A DNA stretch of 64,000 nt from Bacteroidales bacterium (GTDB lineage Bacteria > Bacteroidota > Bacteroidia > Bacteroidales > UBA7960). Position 1 is the first letter of the stretch. Every line of letters begins with the position of its first letter. Below the pieces are notes generated by a model. It was not told where the DNA came from and searched no databases. It saw only the letters and a list, made by a program, of their open reading frames with translations. Both the position numbers and the translations under genes were made by a program. Location of the stretch: positions 5,520 through 69,519 of the forward strand of contig PWRF01000346.1 in assembly GCA_003556325.1 (NCBI GenBank). Direction: 5' to 3'. Of this stretch, positions 5,484 through 18,801 are shown piece by piece.

Positions 5484-6650
5484 ATGTATTCAATGAAATC
5501 TTTTATTTCGATCAAATTATCTGTATTATTTGTTGCCCTGGCTGTCAGTGTTGGGCATTCACAAGAAGGTGGGGTTGATTACGGTGCAGCAGATGTCAAT
5601 ACTATCACGACAGCTGTTCCCTTCCTGATGATCACCCCTGATGCCCGTGCGGGTGCCCTCGGTGATGCAGGTGTTTCCTCACGCCCGGATATCAACTCCA
5701 TGCACTGGAACCCTGCCAAATATGCTTTCATGGATCAGGAAATGGGAATTGCGGTAAGTTATACACCCTGGATGCGTTCGCTGGTGCCCGATATCAACCT
5801 TTCTTACCTTTCGTTTTACCGGAAGCTTGATGAATTGCAAACAGTTGCACTCACGTTGAGATATTTCACCCTGGGAGATGTTAACCTGACCAGCGAAACA
5901 GGTGTTCATCTCGGCACCTACCGGCCCAACTAGTTTGCTTTTGATGCGGCATATGCACGTATTCTTGGCGACCACTTAGCTGGAGCTATCGCTGCACGGT
6001 TTATATACAGCGACCTGACCCAGGGACAGCTGGAGGGTGCAAGTGCCGGTGTTGCCCTGGCTGCTGATGTGGCACTATATTACAACAGGCCACTAAATTG
6101 GGATACACCCACGGAATTCTCATGGGGGCTCAATATTTCCAACATGGGCAACAAAATATCATATACCGATGAGATCAACGCCGACTTTATTCCCATTAAC
6201 CTGCGCCTGGGACCCTCGTTGAACTTCGAGCTTGACAACTATAACGAAATTGCCCTGATGGTGGATTTCAACAAGTTGATGGTGCCTACGCCCCCTATTC
6301 GCGAAGATGGCGAGATTGTCGCCGGCGAGGATCCGGATCGTTCGGTGATATCTGGTATGTTTGGCTCTTTTACTGATGCCCCGGGAGGTTTCAGTGAAGA
6401 GCTCAACGAGATCACCATTTCGGCCGGTGCCGAATATTGGTATGACCAGCAATTTGCGCTTCGTGCCGGTTATTTTCATGAGCACGAGTCGAAGGGTAAC
6501 AGAAAGTATTTTACCTTCGGGCTGGGTCTGAAATACAATGTTTTTGGACTTGATTTCTCCTATCTCGTGCCCGTGGGGCAGCGAAACCCCCTGGAAAACT
6601 CCATGAGGTTTTCTTTGATGTTTGACATGGAGAACCTCTGGGACAACTGA
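5484..6650 (+). pseudogene. porV: T9SS outer-membrane shuttle/channel protein PorV (LptO), interrupted by one in-frame TAG at 5931-5933
   Basis: Track ORFs 5484-5933 and 6069-6650 are in the same frame. The only stop between them is TAG at 5931. Translation continues with no further stop (..GTYRPN*FAFDAAYARILGDHLAGAIAARFIYSDL..). The PorV-like N-terminal motif TAVPFLMITPDARAGALGDAGVSS..HWNPAKYAF is present. Confidence 0.8.
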
Positions 6651-11014: not shown

Positions 11015-11548
11015 TCAACCTTTTTGTCTGTCGTTTCCTGTATCAGTTTCTGCTTCTTTCTGGTCTTTGTAGGTAAGGATGTCTGTGGTAACGTACTCAA
11101 GGGCCACTCCTGCGTCTGCAAACAGTTTTTCTGACTCTTCGCCTGCGTGGTATTTTTTTTCGCATACCACCCGTATGATCCCGCAATTAATGATGAGCAT
11201 GGCACATACCCGGCACGGTGTCATGCGGCAGTAAAGTGTTGCTCCTGCTATGCTGATGCCCAGCCGTGCTGCCTGACAAATGGCATTTTGCTCGGCATGA
11301 ACGGTACGCACACAATGCATGGTCATATGGCCGTGTTCGTGCAATACCTTTTTCATCTGATGCCCGGCGTCGTCGCAATGCGGCAGTCCGATCGGAGAAC
11401 CAACGTAGCCGGTTACCAGTATTTGCCGGTCGCGTGCAATCACACAACCGCTTCTGCCCCTGTCGCAGGTTGCCCGCTTGCTGACAGTGTGAGCAATTTC
11501 CATAAAATATTCGTCCCAAGACGGACGCTGATAGCCTGGCTTACTCAT
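11015..11548 (-). CDS. deoxycytidylate (dCMP) deaminase, ComEB/Dcd-type zinc deaminase
   Basis: SWDEYFMEIA start, with zinc motifs HAEQNA and PCRVCA. Confidence 0.85.
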   Translation of the reverse strand: MSKPGYQRPSWDEYFMEIAHTVSKRATCDRGRSGCVIARDRQILVTGYVGSPIGLPHCDDAGHQMKKVLHEHGHMTMHCVRTVHAEQNAICQAARLGISIAGATLYCRMTPCRVCAMLIINCGIIRVVCEKKYHAGEESEKLFADAGVALEYVTTDILTYKDQKEAETDTGNDRQKG

Positions 11549-11701
11549 GTTCTGATTCGTTTATCCTTATAACCTGAAAACAACTCCAATCCAATTAACT
11601 GTTAACGTGCATGGTTTGCTCCTCTTTTGCAGCAACGCTCCATTATGCTGCATCCTCACCAAGGGTGCCGGTTACTATACCCGGGATCTGTATCCAAGCA
11701 A

Positions 11702-12271
11702 TCATTGCTTCCTGTAAAATCCGATCTTATCCAGGAAGTTTTCGGTCAGAATGTTCAGTTGCTCAATATTGCCGTTGTTTTGAATAACGTGATCGGCTTT
11801 GCGGATGCAGGCTGCCAGATTCTGTTTGTTGGGGTCCCGGGTATGCATCTCGCGTTGCTCGTTTTCGACAAAAACCTGGTACGGTATTTTGTCGGTTTCA
11901 GAGTTTCGCTTGCGAATACGCTGGTAGCGGATCCTGGGATCTGCATCTATGGCAAGCAGATAAAAGTTTTCATGTTTTCGCAGCGCATCAATTTCTCCCG
12001 GTGTGCGTATGCTCTCTATGGCACAGTTTTTTCCTGTTTCTTTCGCTTTTTTAATCAACTGTTCAGCGATATAGGCAGGTCCGTGCTTAGCACGCAGGGT
12101 ATTGGCAATAGCGGTCAGGGTGTCACGGTTGACCGGCATGTTGTGTTGCTCCAACTCCCCGCGCAAAAACCCCCGCACAGAATAATGTGTGAACCCCTTC
12201 TCTTTAACCAGGTACTCCACCACTGTCCCTTTTCCTGCACCCAATGTGCCTGTTATCCCTATGATATACAT
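11702..12271 (-). CDS. P-loop nucleotide kinase-like protein (dephospho-CoA-kinase / dNMP-kinase-like fold)
   Basis: N-terminal Walker A IGITGTLGAGKGT. Its 189-aa size and layout fit a small nucleotide kinase. Substrate not inferable. Confidence 0.5.
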   Translation of the reverse strand: MYIIGITGTLGAGKGTVVEYLVKEKGFTHYSVRGFLRGELEQHNMPVNRDTLTAIANTLRAKHGPAYIAEQLIKKAKETGKNCAIESIRTPGEIDALRKHENFYLLAIDADPRIRYQRIRKRNSETDKIPYQVFVENEQREMHTRDPNKQNLAACIRKADHVIQNNGNIEQLNILTENFLDKIGFYRKQ

Positions 12272-12336
12272 GTCCTGACTTTATTTTTGGAAGCCTTACA
12301 ACGCATCCCCTGGTTTCCAAAAGTACAATTTTCCAC

Positions 12337-12366
12337 AAAAAAAAGCCCCGTTTTGTATAAAAACGG
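12337..12366 (-). terminator. rho-independent terminator of the cold-shock gene
   Basis: On the minus strand: stem CCGTTTT / AAAACGG (12348-12354 / 12360-12366), 5-nt loop, then GGC plus a T8 run (plus-strand A run 12337-12344). Confidence 0.6.
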
Positions 12367-12401
12367 AGCCTCAGACCAGTCTAAGGTATTGATAATAACC
12401 C

Positions 12402-12593
12402 TTAAGCTTTCTTTACGTTTACAGCCTTTTTCCCCCTTTCATCTTCCGATATCTCAAAAGAGACCCGGTCGTCGTTTGTGATGGGATCCAAAAGCCCGCT
12501 ATGGTGCACGAAAACATCTTTTTCTGTCTTATCGTCGACGATAAATCCATACCCCTTTTTTTCATTAAAAAATTTAACGGTACCGGTTTCCAT
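12402..12593 (-). CDS. cold-shock protein (CspA family)
   Basis: 63 aa with the RNP-1 motif GTVKFFNEKKGYGFI. Confidence 0.9.
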   Translation of the reverse strand: METGTVKFFNEKKGYGFIVDDKTEKDVFVHHSGLLDPITNDDRVSFEISEDERGKKAVNVKKA

Positions 12594-12633
12594 AATAAAT
12601 TGGTTTAGTGGTAAAAATAATTAGGTCAATGTT

Positions 12634-12641
12634 CAAAAATA
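12634..12641 (-). promoter_or_regulatory. TAnnTTTG box (TATTTTTG on minus strand) upstream of csp
   Basis: Plus-strand caaaaata, about 40 nt upstream of the csp ATG, inside an AT-rich spacer. Confidence 0.35.
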
Positions 12642-12730
12642 CAACATTTTTGCAGATTTACAAGATTTTTACAAAAAAATTATAAGTAAATGACGTTTTT
12701 TTGTGTCGGAAGGGCGCAGCAGATAAGAAA

Positions 12731-12804
12731 ATACCGGCAGTTCGTTGTTTGTGTAAAAAATGCAAGCAGAGAGGTTAAGGTCAAACAAACGGAACTGCCG
12801 GTAT
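12731..12804 (-). terminator. long inverted repeat immediately downstream of the pckA-fusion ORF (terminator-like)
   Basis: Perfect 13-bp arms ataccggcagttc (12731-12743) and gaactgccggtat (12792-12804). They extend to about 21 bp with one bulge. The minus strand then reads TTTCTTATCT. Confidence 0.4.
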
Positions 12805-12823
12805 TACAAAGGTAATGATTTTA

Positions 12824-13462
12824 TCAGAAAAGACTGATCTCCTGCATCAAAGTGGCTGGATCTTTAAGCAGGGATGGATTTTTATCGATATGGATCTGTG
12901 CCGATACAGGCAGTTTATGTGTTCTCATGCGGCTTTTATTTTCGTGATCTGTCAGCTTTACGGTAAGCACTGAGCCGGCTTTCACCAGGAACTCAGGAAT
13001 GGATTGTGTTACATCCCTCAATTTCTGGCTAAGGTTTTGCAGTTTCTCGTTCGAGCATCCGTTACCGTTCATGCAATTTGCTACCTCATCAATTCTGTCA
13101 TACACCTCCTTCAGGGTCAGGTCGTCTTGTGATTTTGTCATATATTCGTTCACTCCGATGTGGCTTTCTTCGTATGAGCAGAAGTCAAAGCCGGCCTCTT
13201 TCATGATATGAATTACTATGTCGTGGCATTTTTTGATCTGCCCCTCATCATCTGTGTTGAAATACGATACAACAGGCACATGCCGTTTTAGCTTTCGTTT
13301 TTTGTAGTCGGTATTTATCGAGTTAAATGAGATGTATTCGTTAAATGAATTTTGAAGGATGTAGATCTGGTCTTTCAGGCGGCTTATTTCTTTTGCATGT
13401 TGCTGCTGGAGGCGGTTGATCTTCTTTTCATAATATTTGTAGTATTGCTTCATGAATTTGTT
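12824..13462 (-). other. unrecognised C-terminal extension / possibly a formerly separate downstream gene fused to pckA
   Basis: It has its own in-frame ATG at 13453-13451. It is rich in K/N/I/Y with a coiled-coil-like start ([24 protein letters not shown]). No motif recognised. Confidence 0.5.
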
Positions 13463-15109
13463 TTGCGGGCCTGCTGCCACCAAACGCTGGCCTTCCTCCG
13501 TATCGGTAAAGTTGTTGAAGTTGGCAATGAACTTTTCTGCTAGTTCATCGGCTTGCTTCATGTAAGCTGTTTCGTATTTCCAGGTGTTTTTAGGATTCAG
13601 GATCTTGCCGTCCACGCCTCTTACCTCTTTGGGGATCATCAGGCCGAAGGGCGCCAGTTCTTCAACTTTTGCTTCATCCAGGGAGCCATCGAGGATGGCA
13701 TCGATGATCCTGCGTGTACTGCCGATATCTATTCGCTGACCAATGCCATATGGGCCGCCGATCCACCCGGTGTTGACGAGGTAGGCAGTTGCCCCGTGCT
13801 CTTTCATCTTTTTGGCTAACTCCTGCGCGTAAACTGTTGGATGGAGCATGAGAAAAGCCGCCCCAAACGCGGATGAAAAAGTCGGCATGGGTTCCTTGAC
13901 GCCCCGTTCAGTGCCGGCCAGCTTGGCTGTATAGCCGCTGAGAAAATAATACATGGCCTGATCGCGGTTCAGCCTTGCCACGGGAGGCAATATGCCAAAA
14001 GCATCGGCGGTCAGGAAGATGATCTTTTTTGGGTGGCCTCCCTTGGAGACTGGCTTCACGGTGTTTGCAATATGATACAGCGGGTACGACACCCGGGTGT
14101 TCTCTGTCTTTGTGGTATTTGCAAAGTCTATCTCACCGGTTTTTTCATCATAGACCACGTTCTCCAGGAGGGCATCCCGTTTGATGGCATTATATATGTC
14201 AGGCTCCTGTTCCTTGCTTAGGTTTATGCATTTGGCATAACACCCGCCTTCAAAATTAAAAACACCTTCGTTGTCCCAGCCGTGCTCATCGTCACCGATA
14301 AGATAGCGCTTGGGGTCGGCCGAAAGGGTGGTTTTGCCGGTTCCGGAAAGCCCGAAAAATATTGCGGTGTCGCCGTTCTTGCCCATGTTGGCAGAGCAGT
14401 GCATCGAAGCCATCCCTTTAAGAGGCAGATAATAATTCATTACCGAGAAAAACCCTTTTTTGATCTCGCCGCCATACCAGGTTCCTCCTACCACTGCCCT
14501 TCTTTCCTTAAGGTTAAAAGCCACATACACGTCTGAGTTCAGATCCTGCTCGACCCAGTCTTTGTTAACGGTCTTGCAGGCATTGAGCATTACAAAATCA
14601 GGCTCAAAATTCGCCAGCTCTTCGTCCGAGGGCCTGATAAACATGTTTTTTACAAAGTGAGCCATCCAGGCTACCTCTGTGATCACACGTATCCTGATCC
14701 TTGTATTTTCATTCGCGCCACAGAAAGCATCCATAACATAGAGTTTTTTGCCATGGAATTGATTCAGCGTGGTTTGTTTAAGCGACTGCCAAACTTCTTC
14801 TGATATGGGTTTGTTGTCGGACCTGTTTTTGCCGTCTGCCCACCAGATGTTTTCCTGGGAGCTGTCTTCCTGGACAATATATTTGTCTTTGGGCGAGCGG
14901 CCTGTAAATATGCCGGTGTCAACAGCTACGGCTCCGGTATTGGTTTCAAATCCTTTTTCATAACCCTCCAGCGACGGGTCGGTTTCGTGCCTGAAGAGCT
15001 CTTCGAAGGACAGGTTGTAGTAAATCTTCTGAACATTTTTAATTCCATAGCGGGATAGGTCGGGGGCCTGAACCCTGCCGGTTTCTTTTGCAGACGCAGT
15101 TTCTTGCAT
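12824..15109 (-). CDS. pckA: phosphoenolpyruvate carboxykinase (ATP) with a 209-aa C-terminal extension of unknown function
   Basis: Residues 1 to about 549 are PckA-like (kinase-1a [22 protein letters not shown], ending ..RLVAAGPQ). The frame continues without a stop through [14 protein letters not shown]... to TGA at 12824-12826. Confidence 0.9.
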
Positions 15110-15206
15110 GATGTAATTGTTGTTTAAGGGTTTTGGTTATGAATGGATGTGCGGCAGAACACCAGTTATTATGATTTTGGCAGACGTCAATATCACCAAT
15201 ACTGGC

Positions 15207-15214
15207 CAAAAATA
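15207..15214 (-). promoter_or_regulatory. TAnnTTTG box (TATTTTTG on minus strand) upstream of pckA
   Basis: Plus-strand caaaaata, about 98 nt upstream of the pckA ATG at 15109. Confidence 0.3.
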
Positions 15215-15351
15215 AGAAAAATGTTGAGGGAGAACATCCAAACCGGCGAAATATTTTTGAATGCGGAGACCGGCAGCCTTATTCCGGACACCCTGGATTT
15301 TGGGATTTTTTTAAAGAAGACCCTGCACCGCTGGGTACACCCCCGGGATGG

Positions 15352-18300
15352 TCAGCTTTTCTTTTGGATCAGCCTATTGATTTTCCGGCGCGTCGAGAGA
15401 ATGATCTGGTACATGCAGGGCACGATCACCAGCGTAAGAAACGTGGCTACCGTCAGGCCAAAAATGACTGTCCACGACATGGGGCCCCAGAACCTGGCGT
15501 TGTCACCTCCGAAATAGATCTGGGGGTCAAAGTCGGTTAAGAGGCTGACAAAGTTTATGTTCAGGCCGATAGCAAGGGGAAAAAGGCCCAGCACGGTGGT
15601 GATGGCGGTAAGCACAACGGGCCTGAAACGCGTTTGGCCTGCCTGCTCAATGAGAGAAAGGCTTACCATGGGGTCGAGAAACATGTTTTCTTCCGTGCCC
15701 AGCTCCTGGCGCTTCCGGGCATGCAGGTAATCTGTGTAATCCAGCAGTACGATGGCGTTGTTGACTACTACGCCCGCCAGGCTGACAATACCCACCCCCA
15801 TCATAATGATGATAAAGTCCATGTTGAACAGGGCAAGGCCAAGAAAGACACCTGCCGTACTGAATATCACGCTTCCTATGATGATGAATGGCTTGAAGAC
15901 AGAGTTAAACTGCGTGACCAGGATAAGGGCAATGAGAGAAACGGCAATAAGCAGTGCCCTGATTAGGAACTCCATGGATTCCTCCTGCTCCTGCTGTTCC
16001 CCGGTAAAGGCGTATTCGTAGCCATTGGGAAGGTCCATCTCTTCCATCAGTTGCATGATCTGCTGGTTGATACGGTTGGCATTGTACCCGGGAAGGACGT
16101 TCGAGCTGAGTGTGGTTACCCTGTTGCGGTCAATGCGATTTATTGCTCCGTAAGTTTTGCTGTACTCGACATCGGCAACGGCAGAAATAGGAACTTGCAT
16201 GATCTGTCCGGTACTCTGGCTGCGAAACGTTATGCGCTGGTTCATCAGGGTGGAGATGTTATGCCGGTATTCTTCCTTCAGCCGCAGCTGAATGGGGTAT
16301 TCCTCTTCGCCCACCTTAAAAGTGGAGACTTCGAGCCCGAACAGGGCGGTACGGATCGTGTTGGCAATGGAGAAGGTGGAAAGGCCGAAACGCCTGGCCG
16401 CCTCGCGGTCAATATGGATGAGGATCTCCGGATTGTTGCTGTCAAGGTCGCTGCTGAGGCCTTCAATACCCTGTATGCCTGCCTGGCTGATGCGGCTTTT
16501 AATTGTGTCGGCAATGGCCATTAGCCTTTCAATATCCGGGCCGCTCACTTCGAGGTTTATCGGCCGGCCCGACGGAGGCCCTGCCATGTTCTTCTCCAGC
16601 ATAAAGTCTATCCCCGGATATTGCCCCGTCAGAGCATCACTTAGCTCGGCCATGATGTCGTTAGTGTTAATGCCGCCGCGCTTCTCGAACTGTTCAAATG
16701 TAACCGTGATCAACCCCCGGTTTGGTGTTTCGCCGGCATTCATCTCCATCTCTCCCACGGCACCACGCCCTACAACAGTTAACACAGACTTTACGATATG
16801 CCTGTAAGGTTCGATGATCTCGTTTACCCTGCCATCTGCCTCACGCACTCTTTTGTCGGTTTCGTCGATATCTGTTCCCACGGGCAACTCCATCAGGATG
16901 TTGATAAACTGTGGCTCGTTGTCAGGAAAGAATAATACGTTCGGGTTGCGCAGCCCGAAACTGACGATGGCCAGGATCAGCACCAGGAAGGTCATCCCTA
17001 CAAACTTATAGGGGTTACGGCCCCTGAGTGCAAAGTGCAGCGTATTTCTATAGAGCTTCTCGAGGAAAGGCAGCAGTACAAGCTGAAACCATTTTGCCAG
17101 CCGGGAAAGAACAAAATGACCCAGGGCGAAAAGGAAGGCAGCAAGCACAAAAAGGTTCCCGTACAAAGTATAGCCCGTGACATGAAAAAGGATTCCCGGG
17201 AGTAGCAAAACGGCTGTGATAACCAGCTTTCTCCGTGTTTTGCGCTTTCCGGCATTTTGCGGGCCTGCTGTGGTTTGTCCCCTGTTTTCTTTTCTGAAAA
17301 AGGTATGGGAGAATACAGGGATTACAACCAGTGCCACAAACAGTGAGGACGAAAGAACAATGATCAGGGTAAGCGGAAGGTATTTCATGAACTCTCCGGT
17401 AATACCTGTCCAGAATGCCAGGGGCAGAAAGGCAGAGAGCGTGGTTGCCGTGGACGTGATGATAGGGGTGGCTATTTCGCCAATAGCTCGTTTTGCAGCC
17501 TCCAGGATGGAATAATCCCTTTCCACATACCGGAAGATGTTGTCGACAGCTACAATAGAGTTGTCAACGAGAAGCCCCAGGGCAAGTATCAGCGAAAACA
17601 GTACGATCATATTGATCTGAAGGCCTGCAATCCCGAATATCATAAAAGACATAAGCATGGAGAGAGGTATGGCAATACCTACAAAAAGGGCATTTTTTAA
17701 CCCGAGAAACAGGTAGAGTATCAGAATTACCAGTATGACAGCCATGATCACACTGTTTTCGAGGTTGGATAGCTGGATCTGGATCTCTTCAGACTGATCG
17801 TTGGTGATGGTAACAGTAAGATCTTCGGGAAGATCGTTGTTTCGGCGCGCTTCCTCCAGTACGCGGTTGATATTTTCTGTTGCCGAGAGCAGGTTGTCAC
17901 CCGAATTTTTTATTACCTGGAGGCTTACCACCGGCTGGTCGTCAAGTCGTGCATAGCTGGTTGGATCTGCGTATGTGTCTGCAATATCTGCTACGTCGCG
18001 CAGGTATACGATCTGCTGATCCTCGTGTTTTACGATGATGTCTTCCATCTGGGATACATCTGTAAACTCGCCAACCGTGCGAACTGCCCAGCGTGTGCCA
18101 TCCTGAAAACGGACAGACCCGCCAGCCATGGAGATGTTTTCAGTGGCAATGGCCGTCTCAAGGTCATCAAAGCTGAGCTGATAGAGTTCCATTTTAAAGG
18201 GGTCGGCATTGATCTGTATCTCCCTCTCCTCCAGGCCTGTAACCTCTACTCGCGACACTTCCGGGACATCTTCGATCTTTTCTTCCAAAAAGTCAGCAAA

Positions 18301-18801
18301 ACGCTTCAGCTCGTTCATGCTGAAATCGCCGCTAAGGTTAATGTTGATGATGGGGAACTCGGAAAAGTCAATGTCGATCACGACAGGGTCGGAGGGAAGG
18401 TCGGAAGGCAGGTCGCCTTTTACCCTGTCAACCGCATCTTTCACGTCCTGTAATGCTTCCTGTACGTTTGTGCCGGTTTCGAATTCCACAAAAATGTCGG
18501 AATTGTCCTGCGATGATGTAGATCGTAATTCCCGGATTCCGGATATGGTATGGATTTCGTTTTCGAGCGGGCGGGTAACAAGGTTTTCCATATCTGCCGG
18601 AGGGTTTCCGGGGTATAGGGTTTGAACCAGCACCGTAGGGATCTCTACTTCGGGAAAAAGCTCTTTGGGGAGGTTTCTGTAAGAGAATATCCCAAAAAGG
18701 GTAATCAAGAAGGCAAGAAGAAAAACGGTGTTTTTGTTCTTGAGTGCAATGGTGGCCGGTTTAAACTCTCTCACCATTTGTTCCTTGCTGCGTTCATCCA
18801 T
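15352..18801 (-). CDS. RND efflux transporter permease (AcrB/HAE family)
   Basis: 1149 aa. Two-fold repeat of TM1, a large periplasmic loop, and a TM bundle. It is the last gene of a TolC-MFP-RND operon. Confidence 0.9.
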   Translation of the reverse strand: MDERSKEQMVREFKPATIALKNKNTVFLLAFLITLFGIFSYRNLPKELFPEVEIPTVLVQTLYPGNPPADMENLVTRPLENEIHTISGIRELRSTSSQDNSDIFVEFETGTNVQEALQDVKDAVDRVKGDLPSDLPSDPVVIDIDFSEFPIININLSGDFSMNELKRFADFLEEKIEDVPEVSRVEVTGLEEREIQINADPFKMELYQLSFDDLETAIATENISMAGGSVRFQDGTRWAVRTVGEFTDVSQMEDIIVKHEDQQIVYLRDVADIADTYADPTSYARLDDQPVVSLQVIKNSGDNLLSATENINRVLEEARRNNDLPEDLTVTITNDQSEEIQIQLSNLENSVIMAVILVILILYLFLGLKNALFVGIAIPLSMLMSFMIFGIAGLQINMIVLFSLILALGLLVDNSIVAVDNIFRYVERDYSILEAAKRAIGEIATPIITSTATTLSAFLPLAFWTGITGEFMKYLPLTLIIVLSSSLFVALVVIPVFSHTFFRKENRGQTTAGPQNAGKRKTRRKLVITAVLLLPGILFHVTGYTLYGNLFVLAAFLFALGHFVLSRLAKWFQLVLLPFLEKLYRNTLHFALRGRNPYKFVGMTFLVLILAIVSFGLRNPNVLFFPDNEPQFINILMELPVGTDIDETDKRVREADGRVNEIIEPYRHIVKSVLTVVGRGAVGEMEMNAGETPNRGLITVTFEQFEKRGGINTNDIMAELSDALTGQYPGIDFMLEKNMAGPPSGRPINLEVSGPDIERLMAIADTIKSRISQAGIQGIEGLSSDLDSNNPEILIHIDREAARRFGLSTFSIANTIRTALFGLEVSTFKVGEEEYPIQLRLKEEYRHNISTLMNQRITFRSQSTGQIMQVPISAVADVEYSKTYGAINRIDRNRVTTLSSNVLPGYNANRINQQIMQLMEEMDLPNGYEYAFTGEQQEQEESMEFLIRALLIAVSLIALILVTQFNSVFKPFIIIGSVIFSTAGVFLGLALFNMDFIIIMMGVGIVSLAGVVVNNAIVLLDYTDYLHARKRQELGTEENMFLDPMVSLSLIEQAGQTRFRPVVLTAITTVLGLFPLAIGLNINFVSLLTDFDPQIYFGGDNARFWGPMSWTVIFGLTVATFLTLVIVPCMYQIILSTRRKINRLIQKKS

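Follow-up and report, generated by a model that had tools for sequence, protein, structure and literature searches.

In a 64,000-nucleotide stretch of a Bacteroidales genome (GenBank assembly GCA_003556325.1, contig PWRF01000346.1, positions 5,520 to 69,519 of the forward strand; here called the window), the gene for ATP-dependent phosphoenolpyruvate carboxykinase (PckA) runs on past the normal end of the enzyme into a C-terminal extension. PckA works at the phosphoenolpyruvate (PEP)-oxaloacetate node and, in anaerobic Bacteroidota, carries out the CO2-fixing step toward succinate and propionate. The fusion is almost certainly real and read through as one 86-kDa polypeptide. Judged from related loci, it is ancient and fixed in a lineage of uncultured Bacteroidales represented mostly by metagenome-assembled genomes (MAGs) from soda-lake sediments. 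The explanation that we favour for the whole, and hold with modest confidence, combines an ancient translated fusion with an intact PckA and with an extension made of a coiled coil and a globular head that acts as an assembly module. The enzyme is known and the fusion is present in public data, where it has passed without remark; the domain family is undescribed in the libraries that we searched.

The PckA part and its junction with the extension

A single open reading frame (ORF) on the minus strand extends from an ATG to a TGA stop codon (12826-12824) and encodes 761 amino acids in 761 codons, with a mass of 86.4 kDa. The features are as follows, with the evidence for each in brackets.

12824-15109, minus strand: fused ORF for PckA plus extension, 761 codons (ORF list, codon reading)
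13460-15109, minus strand: PckA body, residues 1-550 (Pfam, NCBIfam, alignment with PDB 6at4/1aq2, invariant columns in 42 fused proteins)
13454-13471, minus strand: junction G547-P-Q-N-K-F552, without a stop (linker alignment)
13298-13453, minus strand: extension residues 1-52 (protein 553-604), with an invariant Met, a predicted long amphipathic heptad helix and a near-invariant motif (37-sequence alignment, AlphaFold2)
12827-13297, minus strand: extension residues 53-209 (protein 605-761), predicted alpha/beta core and C-terminal helices (AlphaFold2, hhalign, profile search)
12713-12812, minus strand: 3' RNA hairpin element with a U-rich tail (folding, covariation, covariance model)

The codons across the junction are GTG GCA GCA GGC CCG CAA AAC AAA TTC ATG. 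On re-reading, the 761-residue ORF, the CAA at 13465-13463, the in-frame ATG at 13453-13451 and the TGA at 12824 were all as an earlier first-pass annotation of this DNA had given them. The PckA body scores well above the cut-offs of curated profiles: Pfam PEPCK_ATP (PF01293) spans residues 28-500 (E 2e-212; 706 bits, cut-off 26.5), NCBIfam NF006819 covers residues 13-549 up to profile position 537 of 538 (922 bits, cut-off 745), and TIGR00224 gives 826 bits (cut-off 590). Escherichia coli PckA (540 amino acids; PDB 1AQ2/6AT4) aligns with residues 16-549 (E 4e-239), ending at its own residue 539. Because the NF006819 and E. coli alignments both end at residue 549, the extension begins at the natural C-terminus of PckA, and the AAGP region is indeed where the PckA-like part had been predicted to end. 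The CAA codon had also been taken to occupy the site of the expected stop. This does not hold, since Q549 is the counterpart of the K usually found in AAGPK (K539 in E. coli); a former stop would lie at about codon 551. The usual architecture of PckA is a single domain of about 530-540 amino acids that ends just after AAGPK, and the window protein departs from it with 761 amino acids and 211 residues past the last profile position.

The P-loop GLSGTGKT (kinase-1a) and the other conserved motifs of the catalytic region are identical to the E. coli PckA blocks in the alignment, and R71, H237, G253-T261, D273/D274, R339 and R459 are invariant among 42 fused proteins. By these residues the PckA part is a complete, catalytically intact ATP-dependent enzyme, which we take to be functional. 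An exact look-up of the 761-residue protein gave no record. The full-length fused protein MBN2730057.1 (757 amino acids) is labelled by NCBI simply as phosphoenolpyruvate carboxykinase (ATP). Had the extension been a widespread, annotated companion domain of PckA, this would have explained it away; it is not. A literature search for C-terminal extensions of PckA in Bacteroidetes returned nothing relevant.

The fusion in related genomes

We used the extension to scan one genome per species of the Genome Taxonomy Database (GTDB) and found 43 species-level loci. Five further contigs carry the junction, namely the metagenome contigs L002-L005 and the MAG contig L054, which was found through the protein P0010 described below. 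In all 43 species loci and in all five contigs the junction is open and the extension follows in the pckA frame without a stop. This bears out the suggestion of a genuine fusion between an enzyme and an unknown domain; a stop between pckA and the extension in sister genomes, which would have made them two ordinary genes, was found in none of the 43 species loci. At least 541 PckA codons are open upstream of the junction in 41 loci (40 GTDB loci and L054), the others being cut by contig ends. Word-indexed protein searches gave only 6-9 matches, mostly fragments or split forms, and missed full-length fused PckA, so that these counts understate the spread of the fusion.

The 43 records are mostly titled as Bacteroidales, Bacteroidia or Bacteroidetes MAGs, with a few Sphingobacteriia, Marinilabiliales and Bacteroidota, one Deltaproteobacteria and one 'bacterium'. 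The isolate names of many of the carrier MAGs start with names of soda-lake sediment datasets; the dataset names CSSed10 and B1Sed10 occur in PMC6146748.

The oddity of a 761-residue PckA raises the question of an artefact, that is, a base-call or assembly error (an option that the first-pass annotation had named) or a very recent loss of the stop in this genome only, and one MAG does have a stop at a Gly codon of the junction. The probability of an artefact is negligible and we regard it as refuted, given that 43 species-level genomes, each assembled independently, and 5 contigs share this stop-free junction, with extensions that are from 71% down to 39% identical to that of the window. This degree of divergence also means that the fusion is old.

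Across the 48 loci the junction has the consensus RLVAAGP[QK]N x [FY] M[KR][QE][YF]Y. The linker codons differ synonymously (CAA/CAG, AAC/AAT, AAA/AAG, TTC/TTT) while the peptide is kept, with P548, N550 and an aromatic residue at 552 conserved as protein; the junction itself is therefore translated and constrained. Codon 551 is the linker position with the most variation, and for this reason we propose it as the site of the ancestral stop. In this scheme, the stop of an ancestral pckA would have lain at about codon 551, a 3-nt spacer would have separated it from the ATG of a downstream member of the extension family, and loss of the stop would have joined the two genes. An ancient stop loss at about codon 551 is plausible. 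The first-pass annotation had envisaged a recent TAA-to-CAA change; a stop loss may well be the right kind of event, whereas the age and the exact codon were wrong, the fusion being old and Q549 a normal residue.

Selection on the extension was gauged from several comparisons. Over the first 64 extension codons, differences at the three codon positions are 0.20/0.10/0.55. Between loci L001 and L006, the non-synonymous and synonymous divergences (dN/dS) are 0.033/0.48 in the extension and 0.006/0.39 in the PckA body, and between the window and L009/L011 the extension has a dN of about 0.26 with dS above 1.6, the body having a dN of about 0.07. These values indicate that the extension is under purifying selection, with dN/dS of about 0.07-0.16.

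The extension had been judged by eye to be more AT-rich than the pckA body, and it is, with a G+C content of 0.416 vs 0.495 in the window. Of 41 related genomes that were compared, 40 also have the lower G+C in the extension (means 0.406 vs 0.463), and G+C at third codon positions is similar in both parts. Given that the offset is shared so widely and that third positions agree, the low G+C reflects an amino-acid composition rich in K, N, I and Y. A recent foreign origin of the extension was rejected on the same grounds.

The sole exception to the open junction is L001 (GCA_003557765.1, PWNO01000264.1), where a TGA at 5983-5985 replaces the Gly codon of AAGP and PQNKF-M is still in frame. Gene calling there yields a 546-residue PckA and a separate 211-residue protein, and purifying selection still acts on the extension (dN/dS about 0.07 in comparison with L006). 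The TGA may be an error of assembly, mark a recent split or be read through.

This locus bears on another explanation, in which one ORF gives two products: Met553, a relic start codon, would serve for internal initiation and yield a free 24.5-kDa protein beside, or mainly instead of, the 86-kDa fusion. The extension would then have a role unrelated to PckA and would simply ride on a highly expressed transcript. Consistent with this, Met is invariant at extension residue 1 in 48 of 48 sequences and is preceded by an A-rich stretch, L001 has its in-frame TGA 15 nt upstream of the Met and a separately called 211-residue gene still under purifying selection, and other partners of the domain (L34, HSP20, RRM and AmoA; see below) are abundant proteins too. 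However, the fused form is found at 48 of 49 related junctions (window excluded), where a stop would be tolerated and frequent if only a separate protein were needed, and the conserved P548, N550 and aromatic 552 indicate a translated and constrained junction. K2, Q3, Y5, Y7 and Y8 of the extension are as conserved as the Met, which may thus be just part of a structural motif. We consider two products from this ORF to be improbable, with a small chance of being right.

Predicted structure of the extension

The extension comprises protein residues 553-761, that is, 209 residues and 24.5 of the 86.4 kDa. An alignment of 37 extensions (A1) shows the invariant Met1 in an MKQYYxYY start, an almost invariant block followed by RHxP, and a C-terminus of the form IHxDKNPxLLxxPxxLxxE. 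The AlphaFold2 (AF2) model of the extension, built from a 10-sequence alignment, has a mean predicted local distance difference test score (pLDDT) of 80.3 and a predicted template modelling score (pTM) of 0.69. It contains a helix at residues 2-44, then beta(55-65)-alpha-beta-beta(101-112)-alpha-alpha-beta-beta-beta, and then three short C-terminal helices; blocks of the core mostly have a pLDDT of 83-93, the exception being a loop block that scores 63. Heptad periodicity is evident in the helix, with hydrophobic fractions of 0.72/0.66 at positions a/d vs 0.27 elsewhere. As modelled, then, the extension would consist of an amphipathic heptad helix of about 45 residues and an alpha/beta, ferredoxin-like globular domain of about 155 residues.

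A structural search with residues 553-761 had been proposed in the first-pass annotation. The prediction half of this was productive, giving the helix and the alpha/beta core, whereas Foldseek searches of the PDB and BFVD returned no match at E<=1e-3. The weak top matches were ferredoxin-like domains, dimeric alpha+beta barrels, NIPSNAP, aspartokinase ACT domains and class III cyclase domains preceded by a coiled coil. At the sequence level, the extension has no match in Pfam, NCBIfam, PADLOC, PHROG or the PDB, and the extension and its relatives together give only coiled-coil noise, in agreement with the earlier impression that no family could be recognised. A C-terminal sorting domain of the type IX secretion system was considered and rejected: there is no Pfam or NCBIfam match of that kind (TIGR04183/Por_Secre_tail), the model is alpha/beta with a long helix, and the N-terminus of the protein has no hydrophobic signal segment.

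The extension belongs to a larger family

We searched 1.84 billion cluster representatives exhaustively with HMMER and a profile of the extension. The family that emerged has 471 proteins at E<=1e-3 and 146 at E<=1e-10, with distant members down to E 1e-20. Only one cluster among the representatives is a full-length PckA fusion (P0010, 757 amino acids, a single 50%-identity cluster); the others mostly have 250-450 amino acids and the domain as their C-terminal part, preceded by a longer coiled coil. When the extension was compared with 55 relatives by hhalign, the probability was 99.9% and E was 1e-32 over 192 aligned columns, covering extension residues 19-209. By profile similarity, C-terminal place and the preceding coiled coil, the extension is a member of a large unnamed family that has no Pfam or NCBIfam description, and 135 relatives have no Pfam family in common over the domain, even at E<=0.1. 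The taxa represented among named members are Bacteroidota (Pedobacter), Spirochaetales, Actinomycetota and Cyanobacteriota; stand-alone examples are WP_207425803.1 (Pedobacter sp. SYSU D00535) and MDC7126800.1 (a Spirochaetales MAG). The neighbourhoods of three stand-alone members have no partner gene in common.

A motif, GSWxK, marks the relatives: its S is invariant and its G and W nearly so among 135 sequences, and its K is nearly invariant in the 55-sequence subset. The PckA extension has no GSWxK and reads G-x-N-E-x-M at the aligned positions. H58, H188, D190 and K191 are conserved in the PckA subfamily and not in the relatives, and no catalytic-looking set of residues is conserved throughout the family.

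A minority of relatives have a recognisable partner domain on the N-terminal side. These include NB-ARC/nSTAND NTPases (P0055), VWA domains (P0066, P0124), a CAP12-type TIR domain, a cytidylate-kinase-like domain (P0110), HSP20, RRM, the N-terminal domain of L7/L12 and a sigma-70-like region (P0020). A tblastn search added a Nonomuraea ORF with DUF6232 and the domain, and WP_012168491.1 of Acaryochloris marina MBIC11017 plasmid pREB8 (1162 amino acids; 3085-6573 in L056), in which NNH3, NACHT and pentapeptide repeats precede the domain. The record of the latter protein describes it only as a pentapeptide repeat-containing protein. In P0149 (Logan assembly, 265 amino acids) a ribosomal L34-like N-terminus (HGFRERM...GRKVLARRRAKGRKKL) precedes the domain, a putative fusion. 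Subunit A of methane/ammonia monooxygenase (AmoA/PmoA) is the partner in two Joint Genome Institute (JGI) metagenome proteins, P0150 and the full-length P0160 (509 amino acids, AMO at 22-251). The C-terminal add-on of P0160 and P0150 is about 250 amino acids long with coiled coil and domain, so that this is a second core metabolic enzyme extended in such a way.

In the window, the gene order over 11015-18801 is an RND efflux pump (ACR_tran), the pckA-extension fusion, csp, an AAA_18 kinase-like gene and a dCMP deaminase gene. The order is common to the window and L001 and not to the more distant fused locus L054; the neighbourhood is not conserved across the fused clade.

What the extension may do

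Tentatively, and with rather less than even confidence, we propose that the module is a non-enzymatic unit for self-association or tethering, because a coiled coil is always present, unrelated partners are tolerated and no catalytic-looking residues are found family-wide. NACHT, TIR, VWA and HSP20 proteins work through cooperative assembly, and we count the presence of so many such partners as support for an assembly module. Since neighbourhoods are not conserved around either the stand-alone relatives or the fused genes, we argue that the module acts on its own polypeptide and not on the product of a fixed partner gene. In the mechanism that we envisage, two copies would pair through their extension helices, with the globular head providing a further contact, either homotypic or with a partner. 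PckA would thereby become a dimer or a higher-order or localised assembly, and its regulation or its coupling to the PEP-oxaloacetate node would be altered. PckA of E. coli is a monomer with no accessory domain.

Several points weigh against this proposal. The most conserved segment of the extension is modelled with low confidence, the invariant FNEYISFNS at a pLDDT below 50, and this segment could equally bind PckA itself, serve a ligand-dependent switch or bind another protein. The full-length AF2 model, made from a shallow alignment, has a pLDDT of 46.7 and a pTM of 0.32; its PckA body is unreliable and the arrangement of domains cannot be read from it. In this low-confidence model the extension helix starts five residues (AGPQN) past the last PckA helix. 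Finally, the weak structural likeness to ACT and other ferredoxin-like regulatory domains would fit a sensor role too.

The last of these points leads to a different function, in which the extension is an allosteric, ACT-like ligand-sensing domain whose ferredoxin-like core binds a metabolite or nucleotide, with the rigid helix switching the activity or oligomeric state of PckA. As a corollary, the same sensor would control the NACHT, TIR and VWA proteins that bear the domain. The beta-alpha-beta-beta-alpha order of the core in the AF2 model agrees with this, as do the ferredoxin-like, aspartokinase ACT and coiled-coil-preceded class III cyclase domains among the best, non-significant, Foldseek matches. 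Metabolic enzymes commonly carry a regulatory ACT domain at the C-terminus, and TIR effectors and STAND NTPases are typically paired with sensor domains, which adds to the appeal of a sensor. By contrast, no PDB match reaches E<=1e-3 and the query-normalised TM-scores are 0.2-0.3, and there is no Pfam match to ACT or any other ligand-binding domain in the extension at E<=1 or in 135 relatives at E<=0.1. No pocket-like motif common to the PckA subfamily and its distant relatives was found, GSWxK being absent from the PckA extension. We think a ligand sensor, the chief alternative to the assembly module, unlikely, though not strikingly so.

The immune-type partners raise the further idea that the extension is a domain of conflict systems that links PckA to NLR-like defence, whether as a guard, as a decoy or by recruitment of effectors. 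The fusions to NB-ARC/nSTAND (P0055), CAP12-type TIR and VWA (P0066, P0124) and the Acaryochloris NNH3-NACHT-pentapeptide protein all suggest such a link, and stand-alone relatives adjoin HTH_3/XRE and Fic genes in variable regions. However, the extension has no PADLOC or PHROG match and tblastn found no phage homologue, and few of the 135 relatives have a partner of the immune type. Fused pckA stands amid housekeeping genes (the RND pump, csp, the kinase-like gene and dCMP deaminase), and typical defence genes are not conserved as stably as the fusion is. A role of this kind seems very unlikely to us.

A conserved hairpin follows the fused gene

The long inverted repeat reported directly after the gene in the first-pass annotation is present, with perfect 14-nt arms at 12730-12743 and 12792-12805. 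The hairpin at 12730-12805 folds at -27.5 kcal/mol (z = -4.1), is followed by the U-run UUUUCUUAU, and contains the invariant loop motif CCUCUCUGCUUGCA at 12761-12774 (minus strand). A terminator hairpin with the invariant loop CUCUCUGCUUGCA follows the stop in 33 loci, window included. In an alignment of 24 loci, the 13-nt loop block CUCUCU(G/A)CUUGCA varies only at the G/A position, the outer stem (CCGGCAG/CUGCCGG) is likewise conserved, and 12 of 15 pairs show compensatory changes.

With a covariance model, 33 sources (the window and 32 related loci) each gave a single strong match, in every case immediately past the stop codon of the fused gene. Over 530 kb the model had no other matches except antisense echoes and two marginal ones, and the element matches no Rfam family. 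The carriers are the window (12713-12812, minus strand), L001, L006-L008, L010-L022, L026-L032, L034-L035, L037-L038, L042 and L047-L048; L009 has a 3'-truncated copy at a contig end, and the most divergent fused loci are without the element. With a stable G+C-rich hairpin and an immediate U-run downstream of the stop codon, the element probably serves the fused gene as its intrinsic terminator. It may have an additional sequence-specific role, as a regulatory RNA of the 3' untranslated region or as a binding site for a protein.

Downstream of the hairpin on the same strand, the window has a gene for a CspA-like cold-shock protein of 63 amino acids (12402-12593, minus strand). A CspA-like gene lies 230-490 nt past the stop in most of the loci with the hairpin, and 184 nt past it in L023 and L024, which are without the element; the order pckA-hairpin-csp is kept in about 30 related loci. 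It is a possibility that read-through of the terminator couples csp to pckA transcription, and antitermination by Csp at the hairpin is speculation.

Significance and comparison with known systems

A fusion held throughout a lineage implies that PckA is controlled, assembled or localised in a manner that has not been described. The partners of the family are strikingly different from one another, from NLR-like NTPases and TIR to subunit A of methane/ammonia monooxygenase, and if the role of the module were worked out in a tractable case such as this enzyme fusion, all of the several hundred sequence clusters in the family would gain an annotation. The most far-reaching interpretation, which we think decidedly unlikely, is a new promiscuous domain for higher-order assembly or signalling common to NLR-like immune proteins (NACHT/NB-ARC, TIR, VWA) and to core metabolic or housekeeping proteins (PckA, AmoA/PmoA, HSP20, RRM, L34). 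If this were true, PckA would form part of a regulated supramolecular assembly or be coupled to immune-like signalling, and the 3' hairpin could be an associated regulatory RNA.

Four known systems offer comparisons. Canonical PckA, as in E. coli, stops one residue after AAGPK at about 540 amino acids, whereas the window protein has 211 further residues that form an unrelated domain. The ACT/ferredoxin-like regulatory domains, such as that of aspartokinase, resemble the extension in being a C-terminal add-on to a central metabolic enzyme, in the predicted beta-alpha-beta-type core and in the weak Foldseek matches. They differ in that the structural match is non-significant, there is no profile match and the long coiled-coil stalk is foreign to ACT. 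Rho-independent terminators have in common with the hairpin the G+C-rich stem and the U-run straight after the stop codon, but here the loop is 30-48 nt long and its 13-nt block is near-invariant in 24 species while the stems covary; to our knowledge, ordinary terminators do not conserve their loops. The fourth comparison is with the unnamed coiled-coil family, with which the extension shares the coiled coil, an LQNxLxxYL...R-x-hydrophobic-P stretch (RHxP in the extension), the alpha/beta core and the C-terminal KNPxLLxxP helix. By contrast with the rest of that family, the PckA subfamily is without GSWxK, has its own invariant H58/H188/D190/K191 and a shorter helix, and is the only subfamily found on PckA.

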